A stretch of 64,000 nucleotides of DNA from Escherichia phage vB_EcoM_ESCO8. The translations under genes and the position numbers were made by a program. Numbering within the stretch: position 1 is the first letter of the stretch; each line of letters begins with the position of its first letter. The notes beneath the pieces are model-generated. The model was not told the DNA's origin, did no database searches, and saw only the letters and a program-made list of their open reading frames with translations. Shown piece by piece: positions 29,738 to 43,240 of the stretch. Location of the stretch: sequence record OM386653.1; one strand, 5' to 3'.

Positions 29738-30568
29738 ATACTTTCTGTACTATAAAACCGACTAAAAATCAAGATAATTCTATTTTATTGCGCTTTTAAG
29801 AAAGTAGGCTCAACAAATGGTAAGTTATATTGCAACAAATAGGGATAGTTATGCCCGACAAATAACAACAATAGTATGAAAAATCATCTATTCGGATGTA
29901 AATAATTTTGCGCAATAGCACTGTGTTCCCATAGCGCCCCCTGGAGGGTGGCGCATTATGATCATCAATGTCATTATTCACCATGTTTATTATTGCATAG
30001 CTTATATTATAGCCAATGTTCTAAACATTAGCTAATAATAACGCACCGCAACAATGTAAGGGAATACAATATACCATGTATATTGTTGCGCTTGCAATTG
30101 TTGCAAGCTACATAAGCACAGATAATAACTATCGGTGATGGTTATTATGTGGGGTGTGTAGTTGCGTTATTATTAGCCGCCTATGTGTCCGGCATAGGCT
30201 GCTAATGATACGCTTGCGAATTATATTTCTTGTTATAGTTATTGTATGGAATGATTACTGTATGAAATGATTATTTAGGTAATAGATAGGAAGGTAAAGA
30301 TTAGATCATAAATAGATAGGATATTAATTATTTAGTAATGTTACTAACAATTTAATAGTTACTTTGTGCAACAATTCGATAGATTATAGTTATAGTTTTA
30401 AAGGTTAGATAGATTATATTTAGCTTAGTAATGATTTATATTGGTTATTGTTGTTTAATATAAGGTTATCAATGAGATAGTAACAGTAAGTTATAAATAA
30501 AGGTGAGATAATTAGTTTTAATTTAGTTAGATAACTTATTATTTTATAGGTTAGATGGTCATAAGTTA

Positions 30569-30589
30569 AGAATGATTATCATTATTGCA
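30569..30589. promoter_or_regulatory. Fur-box-like site 3 (aagAATGATtATCATTATtgc)
   Basis: Perfect 13-bp palindrome AATGATtATCATT matching the Fur-box core. Confidence 0.4.
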
Positions 30590-30626
30590 TTATGCAGTTT
30601 ATTGCATAAATAATCAGCTATAAATA

Positions 30627-30645
30627 AGAATGATTATCATTTAAG
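30627..30645. promoter_or_regulatory. Fur-box-like site 4 (aagAATGATtATCATTtaa)
   Basis: Same perfect palindrome 45 bp from site 3. Confidence 0.4.
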
Positions 30646-30855
30646 AGGAAAGACAAGAAAAAGGCTGTTTTTTCCCGATAGTTACATTGAGAAATTAAAA
30701 ATAAGCGGTCTAAAACACGCTGTAAGCGCCTTATGATCTTCATGGTATGGTTGTTCATCTGCTCCTTGATTAGCTCGATACCGCGATCTATTCACTTTTT
30801 TCGGTGAACGTTTTTGATAGGTAAAAGCTATCATATTTATTTAGGTAAAAAGAAA

Positions 30856-30872
30856 GGGCGCTTTGTGCGCCC
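30856..30872 (-). terminator. terminator hairpin (gggcgcTTTGTgcgccc) at 3' end of minus-strand array
   Basis: GC hairpin followed by T-rich run on minus strand, just downstream of CDS 30889..31272. Confidence 0.5.
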
Positions 30873-30888
30873 TGGTATGAAATGTTAT

Positions 30889-31272
30889 TTACTGATAAGC
30901 AGGATCGTTTGTTATATCAATCCAATGAGCTAAATTAATTTTATTTTTTGCTTTCATTTTCTCGATCAAACGTTCGGCTAATGTCTCGGAACGAATATAA
31001 ACATAATCGCTAAAATCTTGCCCCGTTTCTTCGTCGATCATTTCCCTGTATTCAACCTTGCCGATAAACGCATGATTCAGCGCATAAGTTTTACCCGTGT
31101 ACCAGTTGTGTAAATGAATCTCGCATTTATAATCGTCGCTATAACCTTCGGTTGTTCTAACTTCAACCAAGTCACCTTTAAACACTGATAAGCACCACAT
31201 AGGATCACGATCTACAGCGCCGTTAAAATCTTTACCGTTTACAGTCGCTGCCAGGTTGATGATATTGCTCAT
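30889..31272 (-). CDS. hypothetical protein (127 aa)
   Basis: ORF track; first gene of PeSL-associated array. Confidence 0.5.
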   Translation of the reverse strand: MSNIINLAATVNGKDFNGAVDRDPMWCLSVFKGDLVEVRTTEGYSDDYKCEIHLHNWYTGKTYALNHAFIGKVEYREMIDEETGQDFSDYVYIRSETLAERLIEKMKAKNKINLAHWIDITNDPAYQ

Positions 31273-31347
31273 GGTGATTCCTCGTTTACCGTTTAAAATT
31301 GTTTGCCCTACACGATAACTATAAATTAACAGAGGCTATAAAGCAAG

Positions 31348-31578
31348 TTATTTTTCATAGAATTTTTCTACTGTGATATTCTTCCCAGTGGGATTAGCTA
31401 CTTTCAAAATTTTATCATGTACTGGACGCCCAAAAGAATAAGATCCGTATACAGTAAACCAATAATCACCGTCAGGCTGTACTATCACCGCTGCATAGGG
31501 TACGCCTTTTTCGTTATTGCTGACATAATAGATCACATTGCCGTTAATAGCCTCAGCGCGTTTAATTTGTTCGATCAT
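31348..31578 (-). CDS. hypothetical protein (76 aa)
   Basis: Track ORF 31348..31656 reads through the upstream stem-loop cassette; internal ATG (MIEQIK) at 31578 preferred. Confidence 0.45.
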   Translation of the reverse strand: MIEQIKRAEAINGNVIYYVSNNEKGVPYAAVIVQPDGDYWFTVYGSYSFGRPVHDKILKVANPTGKNITVEKFYEK

Positions 31579-31597
31579 GATATGATTCCTATATTGA

Positions 31598-31656
31598 GCG
31601 GGAAACCATTTCCCGCCTACGTGATAAATAATAATGTAAGCGTGATCCGGTGTCAA
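31598..31656 (-). promoter_or_regulatory. PeSL-like cassette (TTGACA -35, -10, hairpin GCGGGAAAtggTTTCCCGC)
   Basis: Minus-strand reading: TTGACA, 16 nt, TTATTA, then GC hairpin, then RBS and start of 31348..31578. Confidence 0.55.
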
Positions 31657-31669
31657 TAGATAAAGTTAA

Positions 31670-31906
31670 TTATTTTGCATAATCAATAACAGCGCAGATT
31701 TTATCATTTACATCTTGTAAATCAAAGGCATAGGCGATCTTGCCTTGCAATTTTCCACGGGTGAAACAGATACGATAAACGCCGTTTTTACTATCCTCTT
31801 CTGATTTTAGTATTTTTGCAACCGTTGCAATTAACAGATCATCAGAGTAAGCGATAAAGCCACCACGTAAAATAGGTGATTTTTTGAGGATCATGACTTC
31901 TTTCAT
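31670..31906 (-). CDS. hypothetical protein (78 aa)
   Basis: ORF track. Confidence 0.45.
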   Translation of the reverse strand: MKEVMILKKSPILRGGFIAYSDDLLIATVAKILKSEEDSKNGVYRICFTRGKLQGKIAYAFDLQDVNDKICAVIDYAK

Positions 31907-32334
31907 TTTCTTTTTCCTGTTTTCGTTTTGGGTATGTTCTACCCTCTAAAAACAATATTAAACTGTTGTGATTTATCGGTCAATAGATGAGATTGTAAAG
32001 ATTTGATAGTTTATTCCTTTGATGTTTTGTTGTTTGATAGTTATTAGCTATCAATATATAGCGGGATCTTCCGGTGATTATCTTCCCCTGTCCCCAGGTG
32101 CCGCCCGTTCCATAATAATAATCAAAAGCAGGGTAAAAGGCAAGATAAAAAGCAAATTATTTCCTATGTGCTTTAAACGCTCTAGATAGCTTTATAACGG
32201 CTTTTTCATCCTGGTAAGGTGATTAATCATCACTACCTTGTTTAAGCGGTTATAATCGGTTTTAGGCTGTTTTACGCCACCTTTACGCCTATTCTTTACG
32301 TGTTGTTTCCATCGTGAAAAAAGAATACAAAAAA

Positions 32335-32351
32335 GGGCGCTTAGTGCGCCC
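32335..32351. terminator. bidirectional terminator hairpin (gggcgcTTAGTgcgccc)
   Basis: Flanked by A-run and T-run; downstream of CDS 32369..32758. Confidence 0.5.
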
Positions 32352-32368
32352 CTTTCTTTTACCGTGTA

Positions 32369-32758
32369 TTAATATTCGTTATAATACATCGCTAATTTTT
32401 CATCAAAAGCTGATTGACGATCCGCATACTCCCAGAACATTTCCTGATCCTGTTGTTCGTCATCATCCATCATGTTGAATTGCGCAACCTCCTGGTAAGT
32501 GATCGCTATATTATAACGATAGGTGATCTCTTCTGCGATGTTTTCCGGTAAAGATGATTCTACACTGTCTAACAGCATATCTAACATCATTTCAGCCGCT
32601 TTTTCATCATTATCAAAGCAGTAAGCAGACCATGCCGCATGATGTTTATTTTTCATCTTTGCAATCAAGCCGTTTACTAAAAAAGGCGCTACGTTGTTAA
32701 CGATACCCTGTAAAGATTGGAATTTTTCAACGTTAGAAACAGAAACCAGGTTGCGCAT
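32369..32758 (-). CDS. hypothetical acidic protein (129 aa)
   Basis: ORF track. Confidence 0.5.
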   Translation of the reverse strand: MRNLVSVSNVEKFQSLQGIVNNVAPFLVNGLIAKMKNKHHAAWSAYCFDNDEKAAEMMLDMLLDSVESSLPENIAEEITYRYNIAITYQEVAQFNMMDDDEQQDQEMFWEYADRQSAFDEKLAMYYNEY

Positions 32759-32782
32759 AGTATTTACCTTTTTTGATTACCT

Positions 32783-32842
32783 GGCGGGAAACCATTTCCC
32801 GCCTACGTGGTAAATAATACCATATTGGGGATCGGTGTCAAT
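32783..32842 (-). promoter_or_regulatory. PeSL-like cassette (hairpin GGCGGGAAAtggTTTCCCGCC)
   Basis: TTGACA at 32837-32842 (minus), TATTAT -10, hairpin 32783-32803, then RBS of 32369..32758. Confidence 0.55.
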
Positions 32843-32847
32843 ACTTT

Positions 32848-33234
32848 TTATTCAATATAAATCAAATTATCTTCACCAATGTAAGCATGCACCGATGGCA
32901 TTAATTTAGCTGCATTTGTTAGGCGGTTGGCGGTGTTAGTAGTGTATATTTCAGGGCGATCCCAAAAGCCTACGCCGTGACCGTTACGGGTGAAATGTAA
33001 GTCATTCCCGATCTGGTTTGCTGTTGCGCCGTCGCTCATTGCCTCAGAGATAGCAGCATCATTGGCATCACAATAAGCCGCTACGTCATGAATGATCCGC
33101 TGATGGGCTTGATCTGAAAAATCATAATCGTCTAAGTTATCAATAAAATAGCCTTCATGATCCCTGGCTGATTCAGCAAAAATAAAGGCTTCTTTATAAC
33201 CGTTGATGATTTCAATAATGATTTCAGTTTTCAT
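32848..33234 (-). CDS. hypothetical protein (128 aa)
   Basis: ORF track. Confidence 0.5.
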   Translation of the reverse strand: MKTEIIIEIINGYKEAFIFAESARDHEGYFIDNLDDYDFSDQAHQRIIHDVAAYCDANDAAISEAMSDGATANQIGNDLHFTRNGHGVGFWDRPEIYTTNTANRLTNAAKLMPSVHAYIGEDNLIYIE

Positions 33235-33464
33235 GCTGTACGCTCGACAATAATAATGGTTTGCGGGATCTCGTTTTCTACTACTAACAAGGCTTTTTTC
33301 TGTGTGATAGATATTTTAACACGTTGTAAAGTAGCGGTAAAATCTTTCATTTCATTATGCGCGGATTTAGTGCAATGCCAGATCTCAGGTTTACCTATTT
33401 GCAAGCCGCGTAAAAATTCTGTTTTACCTGTCTTATTCGTGATCATTTGATTCACCTTATCCAA
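33231..33464 (-). CDS. hypothetical protein (77 aa)
   Basis: ORF track. Confidence 0.4.
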   Translation of the reverse strand: MDKVNQMITNKTGKTEFLRGLQIGKPEIWHCTKSAHNEMKDFTATLQRVKISITQKKALLVVENEIPQTIIIVERTA

Positions 33465-33579
33465 TACCGTGGGAAGATAGGATCATGTTAGCCATAGTTG
33501 CAACCAATCCAACCGATAACGCCAGGCCAACTACTACAACCGTGAAAATTTTCTCTAACATGATTCTACCCTCATTAAT

Positions 33580-33641
33580 GGGCGTTGCCTTATTGCCCCG
33601 CCCTATGTCGTACACTTTACCAGATAACAGCATATTGTCAA
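33580..33641 (-). promoter_or_regulatory. PeSL-like cassette (variant hairpin)
   Basis: TTGACA at 33636-33641 (minus) followed by GC-rich dyad gggcg...cgccc. Confidence 0.4.
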
Positions 33642-33642
33642 A

Positions 33643-33837
33643 CTATTTTTTATAAGGGATCAGTAAACTTCTCGCTATTGCTTCACGTAAACCTTTACTT
33701 TTTATTAGATCTATTGTTGCAGGGTGGCAAGTAAAAGCCTTTGACCATTTTTGATCACCTGGTTTACGGGCGAAAATGTAAACTTCTCCGTCGATTTCAT
33801 CCCAACGAGTATTGCTTGTTAGTTTTTTAAGCGCCAT
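33643..33837 (-). CDS. hypothetical protein (about 64 aa)
   Basis: Track ORF 33643..33867 runs into the upstream hairpin; internal ATG (MALKKL) with aaaagagaaa RBS preferred. Confidence 0.4.
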   Translation of the reverse strand: MALKKLTSNTRWDEIDGEVYIFARKPGDQKWSKAFTCHPATIDLIKSKGLREAIARSLLIPYKK

Positions 33838-33858
33838 GCTGATTTCTCTTTTAGTTGT

Positions 33859-33916
33859 GAGCGGCACTATTGCCGCCCTACGAAATACATTCTACCCGAT
33901 TTATAATTGTTGTCAA
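33859..33916 (-). promoter_or_regulatory. PeSL-like cassette (hairpin GCGGCActatTGCCGC)
   Basis: TTGACA 33911-33916 (minus), hairpin 33861-33876. Confidence 0.55.
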
Positions 33917-33917
33917 A

Positions 33918-34187
33918 CTATTTTTTCAAGCTCGACCAGTCAAAACACGGGGCGATCTCGTTAAAACTTGTACCCTGTAAAGCACATAATTTTTTAGCAA
34001 TAGCCGCCGTAACCTGGCGTTGTACGCGAGGATCTGCTACTGATTGGAGAAAGTAGGCGGCTTTATATGTGATCATGCTTTCGCCTGTTTCCTTGTTAAC
34101 GTGGTGCACGGTTTTAGCCTTATCATCTTTTACCAGGGTGTAACCGGATTCGATGGCCTTGATTGCAACGTCCAAAGATATTTTCAT
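33918..34187 (-). CDS. hypothetical protein (89 aa)
   Basis: ORF track; aagagg RBS. Confidence 0.45.
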   Translation of the reverse strand: MKISLDVAIKAIESGYTLVKDDKAKTVHHVNKETGESMITYKAAYFLQSVADPRVQRQVTAAIAKKLCALQGTSFNEIAPCFDWSSLKK

Positions 34188-34206
34188 GATTTACCTCTTT
34201 ATTGAC

Positions 34207-34227
34207 GGCGGGGAATACTCCCCCGCC
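34207..34227 (-). promoter_or_regulatory. stand-alone GC hairpin (GGCGGGGaatactCCCCCGCC) in 5' leader
   Basis: Hairpin between two minus-strand genes with no TTGACA hexamer present. Confidence 0.4.
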
Positions 34228-34234
34228 TTATTAA

Positions 34235-34405
34235 TTACTCTTCATCGTCGCCGTTATAGTATTCAATGCCGTTTTCATCGGTTACAGTAATGTTAACGCC
34301 ACCGATAGCAACACGATCACGGGCAAACGTCATGGCTTCATTTAAATCTTCAGACCAAAAAATATTGTGACCTTTGCGCGATACGTAAAACATAGTTGGG
34401 ATCAT
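34235..34405 (-). CDS. hypothetical protein (about 56 aa)
   Basis: Track ORF 34235..34435 begins inside the hairpin; internal ATG (MIPTMF) preferred. Confidence 0.4.
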   Translation of the reverse strand: MIPTMFYVSRKGHNIFWSEDLNEAMTFARDRVAIGGVNITVTDENGIEYYNGDDEE

Positions 34406-34427
34406 GATTTGTTTCTCTTCTGTTATG

Positions 34428-34485
34428 AGCGGCACTATTGCCGCCCTATGTGATAAACTTTACTACGTTGTTTGCCTAGTGTCAA
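34428..34485 (-). promoter_or_regulatory. PeSL-like cassette (hairpin GCGGCActatTGCCGC)
   Basis: TTGACA 34480-34485 (minus), hairpin 34430-34445. Confidence 0.55.
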
Positions 34486-34486
34486 A

Positions 34487-34771
34487 TTATTTTTTAATGT
34501 TTTGCCCTACAAAATTAATCACTTCCTTAAGCTGTTTCTCAGTCATGATCGTGCCTGGCAATTCTTCTTTGATTTCTTCCGGTAGATAGATATTACCGCG
34601 CCAGGTTAATAAACAACCGTTTTGATCTTCGCAGATAGAATAAGAGAAGATCCACTCATTATCATTCTCAAGCTCCCAAAAGCACAAAAAATCTTCTTTC
34701 CCCAGGTTTTCAACGGTTAAACATAAGCCGCGACGTGCTGCATAGTTGGAAAGTGCTTTTGTGATCTTCAT
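34487..34771 (-). CDS. hypothetical protein (94 aa)
   Basis: ORF track. Confidence 0.45.
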   Translation of the reverse strand: MKITKALSNYAARRGLCLTVENLGKEDFLCFWELENDNEWIFSYSICEDQNGCLLTWRGNIYLPEEIKEELPGTIMTEKQLKEVINFVGQNIKK

Positions 34772-34790
34772 AGCTTATCTCTTCTTTTAA

Positions 34791-34854
34791 GGCGGGGGAA
34801 ACCATTTCCCCGCTCTATGAGATACAATATACTACCCGTTCAGTGTGCTGTCAA
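34791..34854 (-). promoter_or_regulatory. PeSL-like cassette (hairpin GGCGGGGGAAAccaTTTCCCCGC)
   Basis: TTGACA 34849-34854 (minus), hairpin 34791-34813. Confidence 0.55.
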
Positions 34855-35178
34855 TCAATAATCTTCAATATTTTCTACATTGACAAAAGCATGTTTATTT
34901 TCTAAGTTTTCGCCGTACCATTGCCCCATGTTGATTTCTGCGGTGCGCAACCAGGACATGCCGCGTTCTATCTTTTTGCTCGCAATGTCGATCCGGCTTT
35001 TGCATAGTGATTTAGCTTGCAATGTAAAAACACTATTGCCCTGTAATGCTTCCAGGTCATCATGTGCAAGGCGATACTCTTTAAAGCCTGATTCTATCAT
35101 TTCAATCGCATCAAGGAAACGAGCGCGATGATAGAAAAAATCAGAGTTATCCAAATAAACACCGATCACAGATTTCAT
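34855..35178 (-). CDS. hypothetical protein (about 107 aa)
   Basis: Track ORF 34855..35238; internal ATG (MKSVIG) preferred; TTGACA-N17-TAAACT promoter without hairpin upstream. Confidence 0.45.
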   Translation of the reverse strand: MKSVIGVYLDNSDFFYHRARFLDAIEMIESGFKEYRLAHDDLEALQGNSVFTLQAKSLCKSRIDIASKKIERGMSWLRTAEINMGQWYGENLENKHAFVNVENIEDY

Positions 35179-35507
35179 AATTTTACCCTTTTGTTTGCGG
35201 CCTTTGCCGTTTTCAAGATATAGTTTAAAGCATAACAAAAAATTGTCAAGCCTTTAAAGCGTACAACTATAAAACCTATTAAAACACAATGTATAATAAC
35301 ATGGCTATAGTAGCAATACAACATAAAGCCATGCTTGTTTTCCTTCCTTCCTCGTATGCTGGATTTATTACGCTATATTGTACGGGAATAATTTTCATGC
35401 TGTTTCCTTAATGTCTTAAAACGTGGTTTACAATAGAAACAAGCATACAGAAGAAAAAAGATCCTGTCAATAAGATACCGAAAAATAAATGTAAATAGGG
35501 CATGGTT

Positions 35508-35810
35508 TTACTCCTTAAAAAAATCATTGACAATTAAACTGATAACGCCCAGCACCAGATCACCAGGTAGCGCCGCGCTTTCGTTGTTGCTTGTTTGCAC
35601 TTCCTCACTAGTACCAGCATGATAAATCGCATGGTAAGCAATAGTATAATAACCTTTCGTTATTTCTTTAAGATTAATGATTAGCACGTTATTTGTTTCA
35701 TCTTGAAACAATTTAGCGGTGATAGTATTGTTTTCTTTTACACTATCGACTTTTATTGATGGATCATTTACACCAGAAAAAAGAAAAAACGTTTTAGCTA
35801 TGCCGTTCAT
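35508..35810 (-). CDS. hypothetical protein (100 aa)
   Basis: ORF track. Confidence 0.45.
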   Translation of the reverse strand: MNGIAKTFFLFSGVNDPSIKVDSVKENNTITAKLFQDETNNVLIINLKEITKGYYTIAYHAIYHAGTSEEVQTSNNESAALPGDLVLGVISLIVNDFFKE

Positions 35811-35857
35811 GTAGTTCTCCTTTGTTGTGTGTATCTTATAACGTGCTTTCTATGTTG

Positions 35858-36259
35858 TCAATCTTTTATCTCGGTGCATTTTGCTAGGGTATACGTTGCA
35901 AGTGCTGACACTAGTTTTTCATTGCTACGATCTGCGGCTGTACTGTGTACTTTTTGAATACTTTTTAACCACGGCGTAAAATTTTGAGTAGTGAGCACAC
36001 TGGTAATAATTTCACATGGCACATCTTCATTTAAGCCATTAACAATAGATTTATCTATTTTTGCCGTTAGTTGTGTAACAGCACCATAAGCGATCATGTG
36101 TGAATCCTCCATGATTTCATCGGGGATCGCATTATTAATAAGCATGACGTTTTCCATTGCATCAACGGCGCTTAATTCTGCTACTGTGGAGGATATCGCC
36201 GCGCTAGATGTTCCAACCATGCCAAAAGAGATTAAACCAGCGATCAATAATTTTTTCAT
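35858..36259 (-). CDS. putative secreted protein (signal-peptide-like N-terminus)
   Basis: Track ORF 35858..36271; start at MKKLLIAGLISFGMVGTSSAA after gagg RBS. Confidence 0.45.
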   Translation of the reverse strand: MKKLLIAGLISFGMVGTSSAAISSTVAELSAVDAMENVMLINNAIPDEIMEDSHMIAYGAVTQLTAKIDKSIVNGLNEDVPCEIITSVLTTQNFTPWLKSIQKVHSTAADRSNEKLVSALATYTLAKCTEIKD

Positions 36260-36267
36260 TTCTTGCC

Positions 36268-36450
36268 TCATATATGTTTTATTGAGATTATATTGTCACT
36301 ATATACAACGTTTTTCAACGTGTCAATAAAAATCTTATTGCCTTCAATCCCCAGGATCACGCCGCTAGTTATGAAGCCATATTGATCACGATATCTGGCG
36401 CATAACCTTTGCCCCTGGGCTAGTGCCTTGCTTATTTCTTCTAATCTCAT
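36268..36450 (-). CDS. hypothetical protein (60 aa)
   Basis: ORF track. Confidence 0.35.
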   Translation of the reverse strand: MRLEEISKALAQGQRLCARYRDQYGFITSGVILGIEGNKIFIDTLKNVVYSDNIISIKHI

Positions 36451-36540
36451 TTTAAAGCTCCTGTAAAGCCGTCTAACGTTGATTTATAGGCTTGCCCTGG
36501 CGTTACCATTGCCTATGGGTAACAAGCCTCTATATAAGCT

Positions 36541-36566
36541 AAAAGGGCGCTTATTGCGCCCTTTTT
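36541..36566. terminator. bidirectional terminator (aaaagggcgcTTATtgcgcccttttt)
   Basis: Perfect hairpin flanked by A4 and T5. Confidence 0.55.
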
Positions 36567-36567
36567 G

Positions 36568-36705
36568 TTATTCGTTCCAGTATCTTTTTGTGCTGCGATC
36601 TCTTTTTGTTTTGTTCCGCTTATCGCCTTTTTTGGTGATCTCTTCGTTCCAATTTTTACGCGCCTTGCTGCGGTTGAATTTTTCGATCTGCTGTGATGCG
36701 TTCAT
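36568..36705 (-). CDS. small basic protein (45 aa)
   Basis: Not in track; aagagga RBS; Lys/Arg-rich; followed by terminator. Confidence 0.4.
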   Translation of the reverse strand: MNASQQIEKFNRSKARKNWNEEITKKGDKRNKTKRDRSTKRYWNE

Positions 36706-36720
36706 GTTTTTTCCTCTTAA

Positions 36721-37080
36721 TTACGCCACGTTATGCTGTTTTGCCAGGGTTACGATCATGCTTGCAATATATAACCAATAATTTTCCCGCTCACGGGTAA
36801 CGGTTGTTTCTTTACTTGTTTCTTTTATGTACTTCCATTCAATTAACAAGTGATCGATCTCGTTATAATCAAAAGCAATATTGATTTCTGACGGTAAACC
36901 TTGTAACCAGGAGGCTATCGCCTTGATCATGTTATGATTGTAACGTTTTTGATTATCGGGATACCAGTATTCAGATTTAAAACGGCGCATCAGTTCGGTG
37001 ATCTTTTCTTTTTCTGTTGTAGTACCATTAAAAGAAATAGCCGACACAATGTAAGTTTTAATTGCTTTTACTGATTTCAT
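36721..37080 (-). CDS. hypothetical protein (119 aa)
   Basis: ORF track. Confidence 0.5.
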   Translation of the reverse strand: MKSVKAIKTYIVSAISFNGTTTEKEKITELMRRFKSEYWYPDNQKRYNHNMIKAIASWLQGLPSEINIAFDYNEIDHLLIEWKYIKETSKETTVTRERENYWLYIASMIVTLAKQHNVA

Positions 37081-37100
37081 AATCTTATCTCTTTATTGAT

Positions 37101-37159
37101 GGCGGGAAACCATTTCCCGCCGTTGTTGTTACTTTACTTATAAATCATGCTACTGTCAA
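37101..37159 (-). promoter_or_regulatory. PeSL-like cassette (hairpin GGCGGGAAAccaTTTCCCGCC)
   Basis: TTGACA 37154-37159 (minus), hairpin 37101-37121. Confidence 0.55.
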
Positions 37160-37166
37160 GCGGATA

Positions 37167-37337
37167 TTATTTATTTTTTAACGTTAATGTTCCCAGCTTA
37201 TCAGCGTGACGCAGACCAGGGAAGATCCATTTTCCTGATTCATCTTTTACCGGGGCTTTAAGCGTAGCGCCCAAGTTGGCGGCATTAACTTTACGTGCAA
37301 CGTTGCGAGCGGCTTCACGGGTGGCGAAAGTGATCAT
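37167..37337 (-). CDS. small protein (56 aa)
   Basis: Not in track; sits between two cassettes. Confidence 0.4.
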   Translation of the reverse strand: MITFATREAARNVARKVNAANLGATLKAPVKDESGKWIFPGLRHADKLGTLTLKNK

Positions 37338-37408
37338 GGTGTTTTCCTCTTCTCTTTGTTAGGCGGTTGGCTATTCCACCGCCTTGATGAATACAGTTTA
37401 CTCTATTT

Positions 37409-37567
37409 TTATTTCTTTGCAACTACTTTTATATTTTCTTTCTTTGCCTCTTCCACCTGATCCGCCCACTGCTTACCCCACGTTTGAGCGTTATAGTGAT
37501 ATTGACAAAGAGCAACGCCACGTTTTAAACCAGAGATAGACTTTTTACCACATTGGCAAGTTTTCAT
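37409..37567 (-). CDS. small zinc-binding protein (52 aa, CQCGKK...CQYH)
   Basis: Not in track; aaggga RBS. Confidence 0.4.
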   Translation of the reverse strand: MKTCQCGKKSISGLKRGVALCQYHYNAQTWGKQWADQVEEAKKENIKVVAKK

Positions 37568-37578
37568 TTTGTGATCCC

Positions 37579-37794
37579 TTAGTTGATAATTGTCAAAGTA
37601 AAATCATAATCTTTTGACAGTTTATATTGCACCTTGTTACCGTATATGTCACCTTTACGTAAAGATCCACGGATACCGATAACATCCTTCACGTCTTTTA
37701 AATTTTTCACGCCTGTAATGTCTTTGTTGAAATACTCGTCATCTGAAAATAAAACTTGACTTGCATTTTTTAACAGTGTGCGGATATTAGCCAT
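37579..37794 (-). CDS. hypothetical protein (about 71 aa)
   Basis: Track ORF 37579..37842 reads into hairpin; internal ATG (MANIRT) preferred. Confidence 0.4.
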   Translation of the reverse strand: MANIRTLLKNASQVLFSDDEYFNKDITGVKNLKDVKDVIGIRGSLRKGDIYGNKVQYKLSKDYDFTLTIIN

Positions 37795-37815
37795 TTTGAT
37801 AATCTCTCTTACTAT

Positions 37816-37874
37816 GAGCGGCACTATTGCCGCCCTATGCATTACATTTTACTGATTTTAGTTATCTTGTCAAG
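37816..37874 (-). promoter_or_regulatory. PeSL-like cassette (hairpin GCGGCActatTGCCGC)
   Basis: TTGACA 37869-37874 (minus), hairpin 37818-37833. Confidence 0.55.
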
Positions 37875-37881
37875 ATTATTT

Positions 37882-38109
37882 TTAGTTTAATCCATCCAGG
37901 CACAACAAGCGATCAACATTCAGATCGGTTAGGCTAATCGTTGGCACCTGGTAGGATTCGATGTACTCAACGCTCGACCATTGCCCGAAGTTAGCGACCG
38001 CCCAGCTATTCAAGGAAGAGTGAAGATCATCCCCTTTCTTCTCGGTGATAACTGCTACTACCTGGGAGCTTCCAACCGTACCGGATACGCGAACAATAAC
38101 GATAGCCAT
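37882..38109 (-). CDS. hypothetical protein (75 aa)
   Basis: ORF track. Confidence 0.4.
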   Translation of the reverse strand: MAIVIVRVSGTVGSSQVVAVITEKKGDDLHSSLNSWAVANFGQWSSVEYIESYQVPTISLTDLNVDRLLCLDGLN

Positions 38110-38131
38110 AATGATAACCTTTCTTTGATTT

Positions 38132-38191
38132 GGCGGGAAACCATTTCCCGCCCTATGTGATATATCTTACACTAATTTAAAACGTTGTCAA
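38132..38191 (-). promoter_or_regulatory. PeSL-like cassette (hairpin GGCGGGAAAccaTTTCCCGCC)
   Basis: TTGACA 38186-38191 (minus), 16 nt, TAAGAT, hairpin 38132-38152. Confidence 0.55.
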
Positions 38192-38286
38192 ATTATTTTC
38201 TATTTCTTCCGTAATAGCCTAATTTATGATCTAAGCTAAAACGTTTTGTGAGATAGGTCGAACGATGTTTCATTTTTATATCTCCT

Positions 38287-38526
38287 TTACATTCCAACCA
38301 TCGCGGCGCGGATTGCAGTTTTACTGAACTTGTAACCGTCTGGCGTTTTATCTTGATCCATACTTTCAAGAAATAACATCATATCACGCGCTGCGTCATT
38401 CTTATTGGTGTTAGCTGCGATAAATTCACGCGCAAGATTATAAAAACCTTCATCATTGTTGATCCAAAGGCTTACATTCCAATGAGTTTTGTTTTTGTGA
38501 CCTAAGAACATTTTTGATTTAGCCAT
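38287..38526 (-). CDS. hypothetical protein (79 aa)
   Basis: ORF track. Confidence 0.45.
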   Translation of the reverse strand: MAKSKMFLGHKNKTHWNVSLWINNDEGFYNLAREFIAANTNKNDAARDMMLFLESMDQDKTPDGYKFSKTAIRAAMVGM

Positions 38527-38548
38527 GATGTTAATCTCTTTTTCAGTG

Positions 38549-38609
38549 AGGCGGGAACTATTCCCGCTCTCTATGTAATACAGTTTACTCTTTTTATTCG
38601 TGCTGTCAA
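38549..38609 (-). promoter_or_regulatory. PeSL-like cassette (hairpin GCGGGAActaTTCCCGC)
   Basis: TTGACA 38604-38609 (minus), hairpin 38549-38572. Confidence 0.5.
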
Positions 38610-38614
38610 TGCTT

Positions 38615-38980
38615 TTATAAATCTTTTTTACGTTTTACATCGCTTGCATGACTGTATACAGTGATCCCATTGTCACGGCAAAAACGGGAAAGGTAGGCAT
38701 AATTTGAAAACTCTTTACCTTCCAGGTTGATAACCTTGCTAAATTCTTCCATTGCTACAGTGTCAAAGTGATCCCCGTATCCATATTGGAACGGCACGTT
38801 TACTACTTCGATCAGTTTACCGCCGATCTCAACGTCAACCATCAAAGAGAAATAAGTATTACCATAAGACTTTTGAAACCAGCGACGGGCGCTAATATGT
38901 ACCGCTTCAATGCTGGATAGTTCAATTTTAGCAGTGTTAGCCAGGGTAGCATAAGCAGAAACATTGATATTTTTAGCCAT
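38615..38980 (-). CDS. hypothetical protein (121 aa)
   Basis: ORF track. Confidence 0.5.
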   Translation of the reverse strand: MAKNINVSAYATLANTAKIELSSIEAVHISARRWFQKSYGNTYFSLMVDVEIGGKLIEVVNVPFQYGYGDHFDTVAMEEFSKVINLEGKEFSNYAYLSRFCRDNGITVYSHASDVKRKKDL

Positions 38981-39075
38981 AGTCTTTAATCTCTTTTGAT
39001 TAGTTAGGAGTATTCCCGATAAAAGTTATTATGCTTGTACTATCGTTCGTTGTCAATAGCACAAGACTAAAACTT

Positions 39076-39255
39076 TTAACGATAATCATCATAGGCTTTA
39101 TTGACCTGGCGAATATAGCATTCAAAAGCTAGATCAATAGATTTATATTCACGGATATAATCACCATAGGAAACCACATACATTTCTATAGCTTCCTCAT
39201 ATGCCAAGATGATAGAATCTAAACCTACGATCTCAGTCTTTGCAATAATAGCCAT
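39076..39255 (-). CDS. small acidic protein (59 aa)
   Basis: Not in track; between cassettes. Confidence 0.4.
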   Translation of the reverse strand: MAIIAKTEIVGLDSIILAYEEAIEMYVVSYGDYIREYKSIDLAFECYIRQVNKAYDDYR

Positions 39256-39401
39256 GCTTTTATTCCTTAGTAATGTTTCAATCTATATAAGCATTATAGC
39301 TTACTGATTTCAGGTGTCAAGTGATTTTTTATTTCACCTTATGGGGCGTTGCCCCGCTTTATGTGGTACATATTACGGGGCTTGTTTGCATATGTCAAGC
39401 C

Positions 39402-39947
39402 TTACACAATACAATTTTCATAATTTTTTAGGGCTTGTCTTTTTTCCTCTTCTGTCGGCATGTATGGCTGGATCTCTTCCTCTTCCAGGGTAGGCATGAT
39501 TTCTTCCTCTTCCTCCTGGTCTTCCTCTTGCGCTACGGCAACAAGTTTATTGATCTTCTCCTGGGCTTTAATCAATTTTGCATCTAGCACCATTTTAGCG
39601 GTGTTGTATACCGTCCATGCCATGCGTTTTTCTTCGTATGCTTTATCTAGTGCGGCTAATTTAGCGGGATACTCTTCTAACACCTTAAAAGCCGGATCAA
39701 TGCTATATAAGGGATTATTTTTAGCGTCATCGCTTGGATCTGCGGCGCTTGCAATGTCAGCGTTACCATTTGCCAGCCAACCAGGGCGAACGGATCGCGT
39801 CTTTGTGTGCCCGTTGCTCTTTGCCGCTCGATTCCCTATCTGCTCCCCGCTGTACCCTTCCATGTGATCGATCATGTCATCTGGTATTATGCGCGGATCA
39901 TTAGCGTCATGCTTTACCCATGACTGGATCACATATTCACGCCCCAT
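39402..39947 (-). CDS. hypothetical protein with acidic Glu-rich C-terminal region (181 aa)
   Basis: ORF track. Confidence 0.5.
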   Translation of the reverse strand: MGREYVIQSWVKHDANDPRIIPDDMIDHMEGYSGEQIGNRAAKSNGHTKTRSVRPGWLANGNADIASAADPSDDAKNNPLYSIDPAFKVLEEYPAKLAALDKAYEEKRMAWTVYNTAKMVLDAKLIKAQEKINKLVAVAQEEDQEEEEEIMPTLEEEEIQPYMPTEEEKRQALKNYENCIV

Positions 39948-40209
39948 GTTCGTTCGCCTCTTCTGTTAGTAGTTTACACACCTTAAACATGCTTGCCGCG
40001 TCTTTTGACGGTAGCCAGCCTATGCGATACACTCCAGGATCTGGATTCGTTATATCTGTTAATTGAGCGTTACGATGATTAAAGATAGTGTAACCGCCAC
40101 CAGCACGGGGATAAACATTATCTTTAAACCTGATAGCGTATCTCGCCAGGTTGAACGTTGTAGCATGTTCAAAAGCGATCACATTATCAAAAACTTTTAG
40201 AAAAAACAA
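39937..40209 (-). CDS. hypothetical protein (90 aa)
   Basis: ORF track. Confidence 0.4.
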   Translation of the reverse strand: MFFLKVFDNVIAFEHATTFNLARYAIRFKDNVYPRAGGGYTIFNHRNAQLTDITNPDPGVYRIGWLPSKDAASMFKVCKLLTEEANEHGA

Positions 40210-40211
40210 GA

Positions 40212-40358
40212 TTATCCTCCCCAGCGTTTAAAGCCCGTTGCACGGTTATTTTTTAACTCTCGTTTTAGTCTCTTGCAACGGTTTACAAGTGCAAACCGTG
40301 CCGGAGTTGTAACAGTAGCGCCGTTTTTGGTGTGAATACTCATTACATATTGTTTCAT
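40212..40358 (-). CDS. small basic protein (48 aa)
   Basis: Not in track; downstream of hairpin 40376-40396. Confidence 0.35.
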   Translation of the reverse strand: MKQYVMSIHTKNGATVTTPARFALVNRCKRLKRELKNNRATGFKRWGG

Positions 40359-40436
40359 AAAGTTTTATCCTATGTAAGCGGGAATAGTTCCCGCTTTAAG
40401 ATAGCTTATCAGGTTTTAGTGCAATGTTAACCGTTT

Positions 40437-40799
40437 TTATTCGTAAATTTTACCGCTTTCTACCCATACCATAACACGGCGCATGTTATCCCATGCATCT
40501 TGTCGCAGATTTAAGGCATGCAATTCTTCGGTTGTGCTCATACCTGGTACGGGCTTGCTATATGTTACAAAGAGATCGCCAGCATATTCATAAGCCAGGG
40601 TAAGATCACATTGAATCATCTTTTTAAGCATAGCATTAAGCATCATATTAGCGGCATGTTGATCACGTTTTAGCGGTAGCGTTGCGATCTGTGAGCGATA
40701 GCTTTCGATCCGTGCATCCACTGCATCACGTGGAAGATTTTTCACGTCGTCGCGGAAAGATACCAGGTTTAACATGATAGTATTGATTTGCTTGCTCAT
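40437..40799 (-). CDS. hypothetical protein (120 aa)
   Basis: ORF track. Confidence 0.5.
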   Translation of the reverse strand: MSKQINTIMLNLVSFRDDVKNLPRDAVDARIESYRSQIATLPLKRDQHAANMMLNAMLKKMIQCDLTLAYEYAGDLFVTYSKPVPGMSTTEELHALNLRQDAWDNMRRVMVWVESGKIYE

Positions 40800-40821
40800 T
40801 GCATTACCCTTTCTTTGATTT

Positions 40822-40882
40822 GGCGGGAAACCATTTCCCCGCCTTATGTGGTATATATTACAAAATTATTTTTAAGTGTCAA
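40822..40882 (-). promoter_or_regulatory. PeSL-like cassette (hairpin GGCGGGAAAccaTTTCCCCGCC)
   Basis: TTGACA 40877-40882 (minus), hairpin 40822-40843. Confidence 0.55.
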
Positions 40883-40885
40883 GCC

Positions 40886-41158
40886 TTAAAGCAAAAACGC
40901 TACATCTTGCGCTTTTAGTGTAGTGTCGATCATTTTCGGGCTTTTATAATCCACAAAGCGCGCGGTTTTTTCAATAACGAAGCCGAGATAATCTTGTTTA
41001 TTGAAATTACATTCTTTTTTAAATGTTTCCCGTGCCACGGTGATCGCTGCATCCAGGGATAAACGCCCATCAATATTGATGTTAGCGAAAGATCCGCCAC
41101 CGCGCATAGGTTTACCAGTGATGCCAGCTACGATCATTGATGCGCTATATGATGCCAT
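40886..41158 (-). CDS. hypothetical protein (90 aa)
   Basis: ORF track. Confidence 0.45.
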   Translation of the reverse strand: MASYSASMIVAGITGKPMRGGGSFANINIDGRLSLDAAITVARETFKKECNFNKQDYLGFVIEKTARFVDYKSPKMIDTTLKAQDVAFLL

Positions 41159-41180
41159 GATTATTTCTCTCTTCTGTTAT

Positions 41181-41238
41181 GAGCGGCACTATTGCCGCCC
41201 TATGTGATACATCTTATCAGATTAAAAAACGTTGTCAA
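41181..41238 (-). promoter_or_regulatory. PeSL-like cassette (hairpin GCGGCActatTGCCGC)
   Basis: TTGACA 41233-41238 (minus), 16 nt, TAAGAT, hairpin 41183-41198, then RBS and ATG of 40886..41158. Confidence 0.55.
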
Positions 41239-41609
41239 GAATATTTTTAAAAGATAATAACCGCTACTACAATCCAAAATGGAACGGCTAGAATGATAGC
41301 GTTAATCGTTCCAACCGTCAAGCTGTTTTCTTTCTTGATCATCGTTATCAACCTTTTATAAGTAATGTTATTGTGACGGTGGATTGTGGAGATCCTCACC
41401 TTTGCCCGTCCTGCATTGCGCCCTCCTTTTGTTTATTGTCGTTGTGCCTCGCCCCCCTCGACAAGATGAATAATACGCTACCAGGTGAGGAACGTCAACC
41501 CCTTTTTTAATCTTTTTTCATTTCTTTTTTGCTTGCTATCTATAAAGGAAAGGGGCTATTATCTTTCTACCGCGCCAACCAGGGCGCACATCAAAGAAAG
41601 GGCGATACC

Positions 41610-41876
41610 ATGACAAATACTACTTTACACCTCATGCACTCATTAGGCTGGCAAGGCGGCACGGTGCACCAGGTAGCAAGCGCAACGGGCTTAAAGGTTG
41701 AAACCGTTCTCAACCTGGGCGATCATAAGGTGGAAGAAATAGATCATTTTGATACGTTCGCAAATGGTTATCTATGGGCTTGCAGTGGCGGCGGGGAAAG
41801 CAAGATCCCGCCAGGGGCGCGGGGCGACATGTATTTTTGGCTAGGTGTCCTATCCTGGCAAGAAAACAAAAAATAA
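41610..41876 (+). CDS. hypothetical protein (about 88 aa), GC-rich
   Basis: Track ORF 41529..41876; internal ATG (MTNTTLHL) after aaagaaagggcg preferred; higher GC than surrounding phage DNA. Confidence 0.35.
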   Translation: MTNTTLHLMHSLGWQGGTVHQVASATGLKVETVLNLGDHKVEEIDHFDTFANGYLWACSGGGESKIPPGARGDMYFWLGVLSWQENKK

Positions 41877-41878
41877 TC

Positions 41879-41907
41879 TTGACAAGCCCAGGGATCGGGC
41901 TTATACT
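41879..41907 (+). promoter_or_regulatory. strong sigma70-like promoter (TTGACA-N17-TATACT)
   Basis: Perfect -35 and near-consensus -10; no ORF for about 800 bp downstream. Confidence 0.4.
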
Positions 41908-42138
41908 GTTTTACATACAGAAGAGGAAGCGCCACCCCCACGGCGTAAAGGCGGGGCTAACATACCAGGGCACTACTGGTTGGAAGGTTGATCGCCGGTA
42001 GCTCGTCTAAAATAAATTTGTAAAGAAATGTAAAGATAAAAATAATCGCTTGCTTTTGTTGTTGGTTATGCTATTCTTATTGTATGGCGAGGGGACACGG
42101 GAGCGCGAGACAAACACCGCCCCTGCGCGTTATTCTCT

Positions 42139-42252
42139 AAATGAGAAAATTCTCATTTGCTAATGATTCTCATTCTCTTACTGAGAATGATTATCACTTA
42201 CATACTTAAATGATAATGATTCTCATTTACAAATGAAAATGATTATCATACG
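42139..42252. promoter_or_regulatory. cluster of five Fur-box-like palindromic sites
   Basis: aatgagaaAAttctcatt (8+8 palindrome), AATGAttcTCATT, gAATGATtATCAc, GATAATGATtctCATTtac, AATGATtATCATa within 114 bp. Confidence 0.4.
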
Positions 42253-42269
42253 CACACCCATAAAAACAC

Positions 42270-42478
42270 GAAATTGAACTTTTCATTTTTGATTTTTCTA
42301 CGGAAAAAGGCAAAAAACTTTAAATAAACTGGGGAATTTTTAAAAAATTGAAGTTTTCATTTTCAAAATCTGGATAGAAATACGTACAAAAACTTTAAAT
42401 AATTTTGACCAAACTTGAACTTTTCATTTTCAAAATTTGTACCCAAAAATCTGTAAAAACTTTAAATAATTTTGTCCT
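42270..42478. repeat. three tandem ~66-74 bp direct repeats (ttgaaSttttcattttcaaaat ... aaaactttaaataa)
   Basis: Units begin near 42274, 42348, 42414; each has a TTGAA..TTCAA dyad and a TTTAAATA box. Confidence 0.55.
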
Positions 42479-42688
42479 TTTTATAAAAATGATTTTACTG
42501 TTCTGTTATAAGTAGTAGTTAAGAGATAGTATGCCTTTTAAAGATCAGATACCATAGTCAAACAAACAAATTAAATACTTTATTAACAGAGTACAGAATA
42601 ATATTTACTCTGGATATATTATTCAGAGGGTGGATTTCCGTACATGAAACCCACACCCCTTTTTATAAAAATAAAAATTTTCAAAATA

Positions 42689-43240
42689 TCAGGAAATATC
42701 AGATTGTGCTTTTAGATAAACAGCAAGGTCTGTATGCCATTTTCCTAAAAGATTTTGTCCTTTCCAACAGTCCTTATTTTCCACATCACGATCCCACATT
42801 CCCATTTTGATACCATAAATAGAATCATAAGGGCTTGCCTCTACGAACTCCTTATCTGCGTAAGCGATAAGTTTATTTTTGAGATCTTCATTTTGTGTGT
42901 ATTTAAGATACAAACCACGCTTGACAATCTTCTCCCGTAAAGAAGTCCAAGTAGCTTCATCGTAATCTTTAACTAATCTACCTAGTCGCTTATAATATGC
43001 CTGTTCTTTTTCTCCTGTATATCTTAGATCTCCGGTTAAAATAGAAGATGCAATGTTGTAATCATAAAACAAACATGCTTTTCTCCACATCATATATTGT
43101 TCCACACAAGTAAATTCAACAGAACTTGTAATAGAATTATTATACTTGGGAGCTAAAGGTTCAATAAAAGATGATAGATACCAGTTGCTAAATTCATCTT
43201 TTGCCGAGAAGAAGAACACATACTTATCAGTAATCCGCAT
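42689..43240 (-). CDS. NADAR-domain (YbiA-like) protein
   Basis: 183 aa; FFFSAKDEFSNWY, CVEQYMMWRKA, GQNLLGKWHTDLAVYL fit the NADAR pattern (F.F....SN..., ..EQ..QA.KA, G.NLLG). Confidence 0.65.
   Translation of the reverse strand: MRITDKYVFFFSAKDEFSNWYLSSFIEPLAPKYNNSITSSVEFTCVEQYMMWRKACLFYDYNIASSILTGDLRYTGEKEQAYYKRLGRLVKDYDEATWTSLREKIVKRGLYLKYTQNEDLKNKLIAYADKEFVEASPYDSIYGIKMGMWDRDVENKDCWKGQNLLGKWHTDLAVYLKAQSDIS

Follow-up and report, generated by a model that had tools for sequence, protein, structure and literature searches.

An array of promoter-plus-leader-hairpin units before small genes of a phi92-like Escherichia phage, and its exchange among related phages

Introduction

What is served by repeating much the same piece of non-coding DNA in front of one tiny gene after another? 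The question is raised by the minus strand of a 64,000-nucleotide (nt) stretch of DNA from Escherichia phage vB_EcoM_ESCO8 (sequence record OM386653.1), hereafter the window, in which an array of ~10 kb and ~31 tiny genes (31273-41238) carries units made of a promoter-like sequence, a short conserved run, a GC hairpin, and a ribosome-binding site (RBS). At a rough probability of 0.6, we favor the reading that these are self-expressing early-gene cassettes, in which the hairpin serves as a 5'-terminal mRNA stabilizer or insulator and the units serve as recombination linkers. The evidence lies in the position of the hairpin, in the maintenance of its structure, and in the alignment of genomes, by which relatives differ by whole cassettes at the units.

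Genome matches identify the window as Justusliebigvirus (a phi92-like myovirus of the subfamily Stephanstirmvirinae), and not as one of the T4-type phages with which a preliminary description of the sequence compared its units. The closest matches of the region are Justusliebigvirus genomes such as ESCO32, Nernie, and Paula (96-97% identity), with Phapecoctavirus (phAPEC8-like) genomes as remoter matches (~87% identity). In the Paula record, the array genes are labeled as homologues of Phi92_gp226 to gp248, all of them hypothetical.

Composition of the array

The anatomy first described for the units (TTGACA, a spacer of 16-17 nt, a -10 box, a conserved run, a hairpin, and an RBS) is seen directly in the minus strand of 31000-42000 and is borne out by scans. 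The exact motif TTGACA-N17-TANNNT occurs 21 times in the 64-kb window (1.4 expected), and TTGACA-N16-TANNNT 12 times (1.5 expected), an enrichment of more than 10-fold; 18 of these 33 matches lie on the minus strand within 31598-41238. A looser consensus scan of 30500-42600 returned 58 promoter-like sites, compared with 36.6 +/- 7.0 in shuffles. On the gene strand there are 22 promoter-like sites, with exact TTGACA in 17, a spacer of 16-17 nt, and a -10 box of the form TANNNT or CATAAT. In 14 of 20 units, 0-13 nt separate the stop codon of the upstream gene from the -35 box, and over the 25 nt preceding that box the DNA is 60-88% A+T.

Once bulged and weaker stems are added, 18 units on the minus strand bear a hairpin, matching the "about 18" of the preliminary description; 17 of these have a sigma-70-like promoter. 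The folding free energy (dG) is -9 or lower in 16 of the 18 hairpins, those at 35249 and 31983 being weak, and five promoters (39320, 39056, 36326, 35861, and 31346) have no hairpin. Units stand in front of 23 of the ~31 genes, by which the earlier "almost every gene" holds in the main, although it mildly overstates the coverage. Hairpin types number more than the two main ones that had been proposed: GGCGGGAAATGGTTTCCCGCC-like in seven cases, GGGCGGCAATAGTGCCGCTC in four, and six others.

A strict scan, requiring a promoter and a perfect GC stem of at least 6 base pairs (bp) beginning no more than 16 nt past the -10 box, found 12 units in the region versus 3 in the other 54 kb of the window, both strands included. 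Because the rest of the complete ESCO32 genome (1-50 kb and 97-147 kb scanned) gave only isolated look-alikes, the array is a single bounded feature, one 10-kb array of a ~147-kb genome. It had initially been delimited at 31598-41238; the array itself is real, and its left end reaches further, to a degenerate unit before gene 30889-31272. The features are as follows, all on the minus strand unless stated; promoters are written as -35 box, spacer length, and -10 box, and proteins in amino acids (aa).

41159-41238: unit 1, TTGACA-16-TAAGAT, run gtatcacatag, hairpin GGGCGGCAATAGTGCCGCTC, leader; before gene 40886-41158 (90 aa)
40800-40882: unit 2, TTGACA-16-TAATAT, run ataccacataa, hairpin GGCGGGGAAATGGTTTCCCGCC; before gene 40437-40799 (120 aa)
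40359-40430: unit 3, a variant, TTAACA-16-TAAGCT, hairpin AAGCGGGAACTATTCCCGCTT from 6 nt past the -10 box; before gene 40212-40358 (48 aa)
39937-40209 and 39402-39947: genes after the unit-3 gene, without a unit of their own
39321-39398: unit 4, TTGACA-17-TAATAT, gtaccacataaa, short hairpin GGGGCAACGCCCC; unit 5 directly after
39256-39320: unit 5, perfect consensus TTGACA-16-TATAAT, no hairpin; before gene 39076-39255 (59 aa)
38981-39056: unit 6, TTGACA-17-CATAAT, no GC hairpin; before gene 38615-38980 (121 aa)
38527-38609: unit 7, TTGACA-16-TAAACT, gtattacatagaga, hairpin GCGGGAATAGTTCCCGC; before gene 38287-38526 (79 aa, DUF7249)
38110-38191: unit 8, TTGACA-16-TAAGAT, run atatcacatag, hairpin GGCGGGAAATGGTTTCCCGCC; before gene 37882-38109 (75 aa)
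37795-37873: unit 9, TTGACA-16-TAAAAT, run gtaatgcatag, hairpin GGGCGGCAATAGTGCCGCTC; before gene 37579-37794 (71 aa)
37409-37567: gene 11 (52 aa), next after gene 37579-37794, of patchy distribution
37338-37422: unit 10, weak -35 box, TTGCAA-16-TAAACT, run gtattcatcaa, hairpin GGCGGTGGAATAGCCAACCGCC; before gene 37167-37337 (56 aa)
37081-37159: unit 11, TTGACA-17-TAAAGT, hairpin GGCGGGAAATGGTTTCCCGCC; before genes 36721-37080 (119 aa) and 36568-36705 (45 aa, Pfam Phage_1_1)
36541-36565: canonical intrinsic terminator, bidirectional, GGGCGC..GCGCCC between A and T runs
36260-36326: unit 12, TTGACA-17-TATAGT, no hairpin, within the end of gene 36268-36450; before gene 35858-36259 (133 aa, signal-peptide-like N-terminus)
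35811-35861: unit 13, TTGACA-17-TAAGAT, no hairpin; before genes 35508-35810, 35408-35503, and 35279-35398
35179-35249: unit 14, TTGACA-16-TAAACT, weak hairpin CGGCAAAGGCCG; before gene 34855-35178 (107 aa)
34772-34854: unit 15, TTGACA-17-TATATT, gtatctcatagag, hairpin CGGGGAAATGGTTTCCCCCG; before gene 34487-34771 (94 aa)
34406-34485: unit 16, TTGACA-17-TAAAGT, run ttatcacatag, hairpin GGGCGGCAATAGTGCCGCTC; before gene 34235-34405 (56 aa)
34188-34232: unit 17, hairpin GGCGGGGGAGTATTCCCCGCC and leader, no recognizable promoter; before gene 33918-34187 (89 aa)
33838-33916: unit 18, TTGACA-16-TAGAAT, run gtatttcgtag, hairpin GGGCGGCAATAGTGCCGCTC; before gene 33643-33837 (64 aa)
33562-33641: unit 19, TTGACA-16-TAAAGT, run gtacgacatag, bulged hairpin GGGCGGGGCAATAAGGCAACGCCC; before genes 33457-33561, 33231-33446, and 32848-33234
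32759-32841: unit 20, TTGACA-16-TATTAT, run ttaccacgtag, hairpin GCGGGAAATGGTTTCCCGC; before gene 32369-32758 (129 aa)
32329-32357: canonical intrinsic terminator, T-run on the gene strand
31907-31983: unit 21, TTGACC-17-TAATAT, weak hairpin GGGTAGAACATACCC; before gene 31670-31906 (78 aa)
31579-31656: unit 22, TTGACA-17-TATTAT, run ttatcacgtag, hairpin GCGGGAAATGGTTTCCCGC; before gene 31348-31578 (76 aa)
31273-31346: unit 23, degenerate, TTGCTT-17-TATAGT and run tatcgtgtagggc, no hairpin; before gene 30889-31272 (127 aa, Phi92_gp248 homologue)
30855-30873: terminator closing the array, canonical intrinsic, with T-run

The cargo had been called uncharacterized, in agreement with Pfam and PHROGs scans of 30 cargo proteins, which gave no known function for any. 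The only named matches were the T7 gene 1.1 family (Pfam Phage_1_1, E = 9e-11), whose role is unknown, for the product of 36568-36705, DUF7249 (E = 9e-12) for that of 38287-38526, and a small membrane-protein family. Several cargo products are very small membrane proteins, and the gene 11 product is cysteine-rich (MKTCQCGKK...).

Position of the hairpin

Geometry was determined for 71 distinct units from 12 genomes (the window and eleven related loci), which hold 41 distinct hairpins. The stem starts 8-12 nt past the -10 box in all 71 and 10-11 nt past it in 59 (83%), and is never within the promoter. Across those 59, nt 1-12 past the -10 box follow the consensus (G/T)TA(T/C)CAC(A/G)TAGG (70-92% per position), confirming the run noticed earlier as tatcacatag or taccacgtag, while the spacer between the -35 and -10 hexamers shows no conservation. 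Stems have 6-12 pairs (median 9) and loops mostly 3-4 nt, with a mean dG of -14.3 kcal/mol and a mean shuffle z-score of -4.0; the 5' arm is 62% G and lacks T, and the 3' arm is 58% C. From the hairpin end to the ATG there are 15-25 nt, the leaders ending in a Shine-Dalgarno sequence and ATG. If transcription starts 6-8 nt past the -10 box, at the CA/CR steps of the run, the transcript is predicted to begin with a tail of 3-5 free nt before the hairpin.

These measurements bear on whether the hairpin could instead be a terminator or attenuator of the kind described for promoter-early stem-loop (PeSL) cassettes, stopping or damping transcription from the upstream cassette, so that each gene is served by its own promoter only. 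Published PeSL stem-loops are described as effective terminators, one of which cut lacZ expression like rrnB T1; the unit hairpins are intergenic and GC-rich; and the depositors of the Paula and ASO2A records annotated the leader hairpins as rho-independent terminators (WebGeSTer, TransTermHP). However, on the gene strand a T-tract test is failed by all 18 unit hairpins and passed by three canonical GGGCGC terminators (hairpin plus T-run) at other sites of the same array; three unit hairpins (34207, 37097, and 39342) pass on the opposite strand only. Because the U-tract is absent on the gene strand, the unit hairpins are not canonical terminators, and at their fixed offset past the -10 box they lie within the predicted 5' leader, as originally placed. 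Moreover, no particular place in the spacer would be required of a terminator that acts on upstream transcripts, as the variable position in PeSLs illustrates, whereas here the hairpin is locked 10-11 nt past the -10 box; this lock makes sense only relative to the unit's own start, and therefore argues against termination of upstream transcripts. We consider a terminator role unlikely.

As annotated, ASO2A runs promoter, terminator, gene, an order that cannot be correct because it would silence every gene. In the Paula annotation, the hairpin "terminators" are often on the strand opposite the genes. The terminator labels are probably a systematic annotation error in this phage group. The associated paper gives only counts of predicted features.

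The hairpin might otherwise be a leader insulator or translation element, which clamps the leader and keeps the RBS open for messages from the unit's own promoter or from read-through, or which is bound by a protein that times translation or decay. The constant hairpin-to-ATG distance, the unpaired RBS in predicted leaders, and the retention of the promoter-less unit 17 hairpin in all relatives fit such a role, and the strongly conserved CACRTAGG run beside the stem could be a recognition site. Nevertheless, the distance to the -10 box is tighter than that to the ATG, the 41 stems and variable loops offer no common protein-recognition surface except the flanking run, and no candidate binding protein was identified; we regard this possibility as doubtful, about on a par with a terminator. 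Because the hairpin is tightly coupled to the -10 box, and not to the stop codon or the ATG, a role at the 5' end of the message is favored over either a terminator or a pure RBS insulator.

The preliminary description had offered control of translation or of RNA stability. Translation control by RBS occlusion is not supported by the predicted folds, in which the RBS is unpaired in nearly all leaders, and RNA stabilization appears the better-supported of the two options. An Rfam 15 scan of 29500-43500 gave no match above threshold (two sub-threshold, chance-level hits).

Gain, loss, and exchange of cassettes

Cassette shuffling, also proposed at the outset, is apparent among the relatives: cassettes are gained, lost, replaced, and re-ordered, with junctions in the units, and the loci are not strictly syntenic, differing in both the presence and the order of genes. 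Unit intervals make up 17% of the region and contain 29 of the 62 distinct homology end-points that BLAST comparison of 30500-42600 against the eleven loci produced (binomial p = 4e-8, a figure qualified below); many others lie within 20 nt of such an interval. Among sequenced junctions, some are on the -35 box, others within the conserved run or in the interval separating the -10 box from the hairpin.

Individual events illustrate this pattern. Paula lacks 31663-31978 (one gene with its promoter, the unit-21 cassette), and a single hybrid -35 region is left where the window has ATCTATTGAC twice; the phage alia lacks 31322-31615, such that the unit 22 promoter is joined to the gene 31 leader exactly at TATCACGTAGG. 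In ESCO32, two units enclose an additional 264-nt gene, and the promoter half of one together with the hairpin half of the other equals window unit 7, which is chimeric. Exact repeats between units of the window reach 42 nt (units 1 and 16). The VEcB locus was examined for a large unit-to-unit deletion, and none was found.

Exchange extends beyond the genus. Gene 11 is absent from six Justusliebigvirus loci, yet is present in Nernie, outra, and EmilieFrey and in the Phapecoctavirus phages ASO2A and PNJ1809-36 at 99.5-100% identity, versus ~87% for its flanks, and is found in the jumbo phage 121Q at 87.6% identity. Displacement of the unit 10 -35 box by the gene 11 insertion was considered and is ruled out, since TTGCAA is there whether or not the insertion is. 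The two genera have their genes in different orders (g1-g4-g5-g2-g7 vs. g1-g2-g3-g4-g5-g6-g7). In the rV5-like phage PDX, window segments 33233-33924, 39074-39267, and 31349-31581 lie side by side in a different order at ~90% identity, the rest being unalignable. Units of the same geometry occur in PDX, and before orthologues in the jumbo phage SP27. A scan of IMG/VR with the exact unit motif retrieved only five contigs (97-153 kb) and did not widen the host range.

Maintenance of the hairpin structure

MAFFT alignments of whole units or of all hairpins are not structure-consistent, stem and loop lengths being different; for this reason, the formal pair count was limited to the 3-nt-loop class, which MAFFT aligns in register, and an arm-swap test was applied to the rest. 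Among 14 distinct 3-nt-loop hairpins, 96.6% of cells pair, a level attained by none of 500 shuffles, for which the figure is 82.6%; both sides have changed in 5 of 10 pairs, and sliding the partner column reduces pairing to 43-66%. In the arm-swap test, cognate arms fold at -12.8 kcal/mol versus -9.5 kcal/mol for swapped arms, a foreign 3' arm costing a mean of 3.3 kcal/mol.

Before orthologous genes, the type of hairpin changes from phage to phage while its distance from the ATG stays the same. Four or five types occur before gene 1 (including GGGCGGCA.., GGGCGGCGGA.., and GGGGCG.. stems) and three before gene 22, and at genes 6 and 7 a hairpin is present in some phages and absent in others. 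Because the stems co-vary and the same gene has different hairpin types in different phages, the sequence comparison argues that the hairpin structure itself is under selection.

The same data weigh on a DNA-level role, either as an operator for a dimeric phage regulator that ends early transcription or as a cruciform or single-strand hairpin for a dedicated recombinase. Near-perfect palindromes just downstream of promoters occupy a typical roadblock position, sense and antisense hairpins are equally stable (neither stability nor G.U counts gave a strand signal), and PeSL crossovers have been mapped in or beside the stem-loop. Still, the palindromes differ in sequence (41 variants) and keep only their pairing potential, which a sequence-specific DNA-binding protein would not tolerate, and the junctions, instead of sharing a single defined site, are spread over the -35 box, the conserved run, the -10 region, and a stem arm; we judge a DNA-level element very improbable. 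ESCO32 annotates a recombinase/resolvase-family DNA invertase at 42595-43257 (~8-9 kb in the window).

That the hairpin and run have no function beyond the promoters, and are hitch-hiking repeats copied with them by duplication or gene conversion, would account for the exact stretches of up to 42 nt shared by units of one genome, as recent copying predicts, but is hardly credible given that spacers are unconserved while hairpin pairing is kept through compensatory changes and wholesale type replacement, and that the same geometry recurs in three phage lineages.

Proposed function of the units

We propose that the region is a single hyperplastic early-gene array of a phi92-like myovirus, made of self-contained expression cassettes. 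From the near-consensus sigma-70 promoters, it follows that host RNA polymerase could transcribe the small genes right after infection, with no need of a phage factor. The conserved discriminator and start region, (G/T)TAYCACRTAGG, would set the start site, as judged from unit geometry and RNA-decay biology, giving messages with ~3-5 unpaired nt, a stable 6-12-bp GC hairpin, and then a 15-25-nt unstructured, A-rich or purine-rich leader with the RBS. RNase E and RppH need single-stranded 5' ends, which accounts for the long-known stabilization by 5' secondary structure (review PMC3997798), and internal stem-loops are easily passed by scanning RNase E (PMC9943677). The hairpin would accordingly protect the 5' triphosphate against RppH and against RNase E attack that depends on the 5' end, yielding longer-lived early messages, and would also give every cassette a uniform RBS context regardless of upstream sequence.

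As for exchange, units of 60-90 nt in ~20 copies and one orientation would, from the genome comparison, provide portable homology for recombination: exchange in the -35 box, the conserved run, or the interval between the -10 box and hairpin could delete, insert, replace, or re-order genes while promoter and leader stay working. The cassette format is common to rV5-like and jumbo coliphages as well, and cassettes have passed from one of these lineages to another. A bolder version, which we advance only tentatively and think improbable as a whole, makes the unit the common connector of a cassette pool in phi92-like, rV5-like, and 350-kb Asteriusvirus jumbo phages; genes would move between co-infecting phages by unit-to-unit exchange, possibly via excised circles, in an integron-like manner without an integrase, and the hairpin would be both mRNA stabilizer and recombination focus.

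Several points weigh against the proposed stabilizer-and-linker role. The start site, and with it the length of the 5' tail, are predictions, and at 3-5 nt such a tail would lie at the top of the protective range for ompA-type hairpins and may still admit RppH. The hairpin is neither strictly tied to a 5' end nor indispensable, as the promoter-less unit 17 and the five promoters lacking a hairpin show. With stability equal on both strands, the sequence fits a sense-RNA element and a DNA-level or antisense element alike, and the pair count leans toward structure because its sequences were chosen for folding. Selection for intact genes would be expected to produce part of the breakpoint enrichment, a confounding effect that arises because the array's intergenic DNA is almost all unit DNA. 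In addition, some events used microhomology beyond the units: PHB05 has lost most of gene 13 by a deletion joining GCGGGAAA, in the hairpin arm of unit 11, to an identical 8-mer in gene 13 (~5509-5555 of the PHB05 locus, corresponding to window 36790-37113), and not by unit-to-unit exchange.

If the proposal is correct, the PeSL idea would extend past the T4-like phages with a cleaner layout, in which a promoter and a fixed start are followed by a 5' hairpin and an open RBS, and would offer a simple rule by which a lytic phage keeps ~20 very short early messages stable and evenly expressed and their genes exchangeable. The ~31 uncharacterized small proteins would constitute a variable early set, the usual home of host-takeover and anti-defense functions, with those that cross lineages now indicated. 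A recurrent annotation error, in which hairpins are deposited as terminators, would be exposed, and the units would supply compact natural promoter-plus-leader parts for engineering in E. coli. The array is a tidy expression-and-shuffling architecture and involves no new principle.

Comparison with known systems

The match to PeSL cassettes suggested in the preliminary description holds for the promoter, the stem-loop, the array of ORFan genes, and the junctions in units, and fails for the lineage and the stem-loop position. PeSLs have been described in RB49/phi1, PST/T4, and nt-1/KVP40 (Arbiol et al., 2010, PMC2839356; Comeau et al., 2014, PMC4122927). Like the units of the array, they have a near-consensus sigma-70 promoter, a stop codon of the preceding gene within AT-rich DNA immediately ahead of the -35 box, a stem-loop made of a G-run and a C-run, and a Shine-Dalgarno sequence and start codon at the 3' end; they form dense arrays in a variable, ORFan-rich region, and close relatives differ by indels and replacements with junctions in the units. 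By contrast, they are reported only in T4-like phages, whereas the present array belongs to Stephanstirmvirinae, and their stem-loops occur in five positions, mostly between or overlapping the hexamers, and are put forward as terminators. In the present array, every stem-loop lies past the -10 box, at a fixed 10-11 nt, within the predicted transcript and without a U-tract, and a 12-nt conserved run separates the -10 box from the stem. Because published PeSL stem-loops sit mostly in or over the promoter at variable positions, as terminators, the array is PeSL-like in behavior but not a straightforward member, having a different geometry and a different lineage.

For the hairpin itself, the nearest likeness is to the 5' untranslated region stabilizers of ompA and papA (Emory, Bouvet and Belasco, 1992, cited in review PMC3997798), in which a simple stable stem-loop lies a few nt from the 5' end (predicted in our case), position is critical, sequence is unimportant, and an accessible RBS follows. 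Structure likewise prevails over sequence in the array, with 41 distinct stems, compensatory changes, and hairpin types swapped at orthologous genes. The ompA and papA elements are single cellular-gene cases proven by half-life, whereas the array holds a repeated, interchangeable candidate element of this kind on ~18 phage genes, and its predicted 3-5-nt tail may slightly exceed the optimum.

Lambdoid morons, genes that sit among core genes with a promoter and terminator of their own, differ from the array in being isolated, often in opposite orientation, with a true terminator and no shared repeat that mediates exchange (PMC2839356, discussion). They resemble it as autonomous accessory-gene units gained and lost between relatives. 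A further parallel is the host-takeover module of the Bacillus phage SPO1, with ~24 small early genes and many strong early promoters; both are compact small-gene arrays of mostly unknown function with many strong promoters for the host polymerase at the start of infection. To our knowledge, no conserved leader hairpin or cassette shuffling has been described for the SPO1 module, and host and lineage differ. In the literature on phi92-, phAPEC8-, and rV5-like phages, we found no description of such units and no transcript-start data, the rV5 paper listing promoters and terminators separately.

Surroundings and sequence composition

Because a plus-strand gene with its own promoter (41529-41876, a Phi92_gp224 homologue; TTGACA-17-TATACT at 41879) lies upstream of unit 1, the array begins at a divergent promoter region. 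Upstream of unit 1 are two further TTGACG promoters (41498 and 41321) and a small open reading frame (ORF) in the region 41247-41530. Between unit 21 and the terminator at 32329-32357 there is a 340-nt gap without ORFs (31990-32330), which has no Rfam match, and past the closing terminator lies ~1.4 kb of AT-rich, apparently non-coding DNA (29400-30850) with many short CTATCT and TAATCAT repeats. On the other side, ~800 nt at 41900-42690 are non-coding and contain three iteron-like 67-nt direct repeats (42270-42477) beside Fur-like boxes; this segment may be an origin or control region. Promoter-plus-hairpin look-alikes outside the array in the window are at 7669 (plus), 15565 (plus), and 18660 (minus), and one in ESCO32, GACATAGAGCGGAGGATTGTCCTCCGC (L013:1426, ~98.7 kb), has the CATAG run and stands before a gene for an integral membrane protein.

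Palindromes of the form AATGAT(A/T)ATCATT cluster in both non-coding flanks (29521-29539, 29722-29734, 30571-30583, 30629-30641, and 42162-42250), and with no more than 2 mismatches number 31 in the window, compared with 6.4 +/- 2.5 in shuffles. They are close to the core of the E. coli Fur box (e.g., GCAATAATGATAATCATTCTT), and could be Fur sites or operators of a phage regulator.

The array also differs in composition. The Dam site GATC is about twice as frequent in 32000-42000 (33-39 per 4 kb vs. 11-23 elsewhere in the window), as is the Dcm site CCWGG (16 per 4 kb vs. 2-8 elsewhere), and G+C climbs to 39-43% in the array. Over the whole window, GGCC is strongly avoided (14 observed vs. 67.5 expected). 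Finally, 19 records labeled as Campylobacter phages (A150, C3, B15, and others) share ~88-95% identity with the present group of E. coli phages, and look like mislabeled or contaminant sequences.

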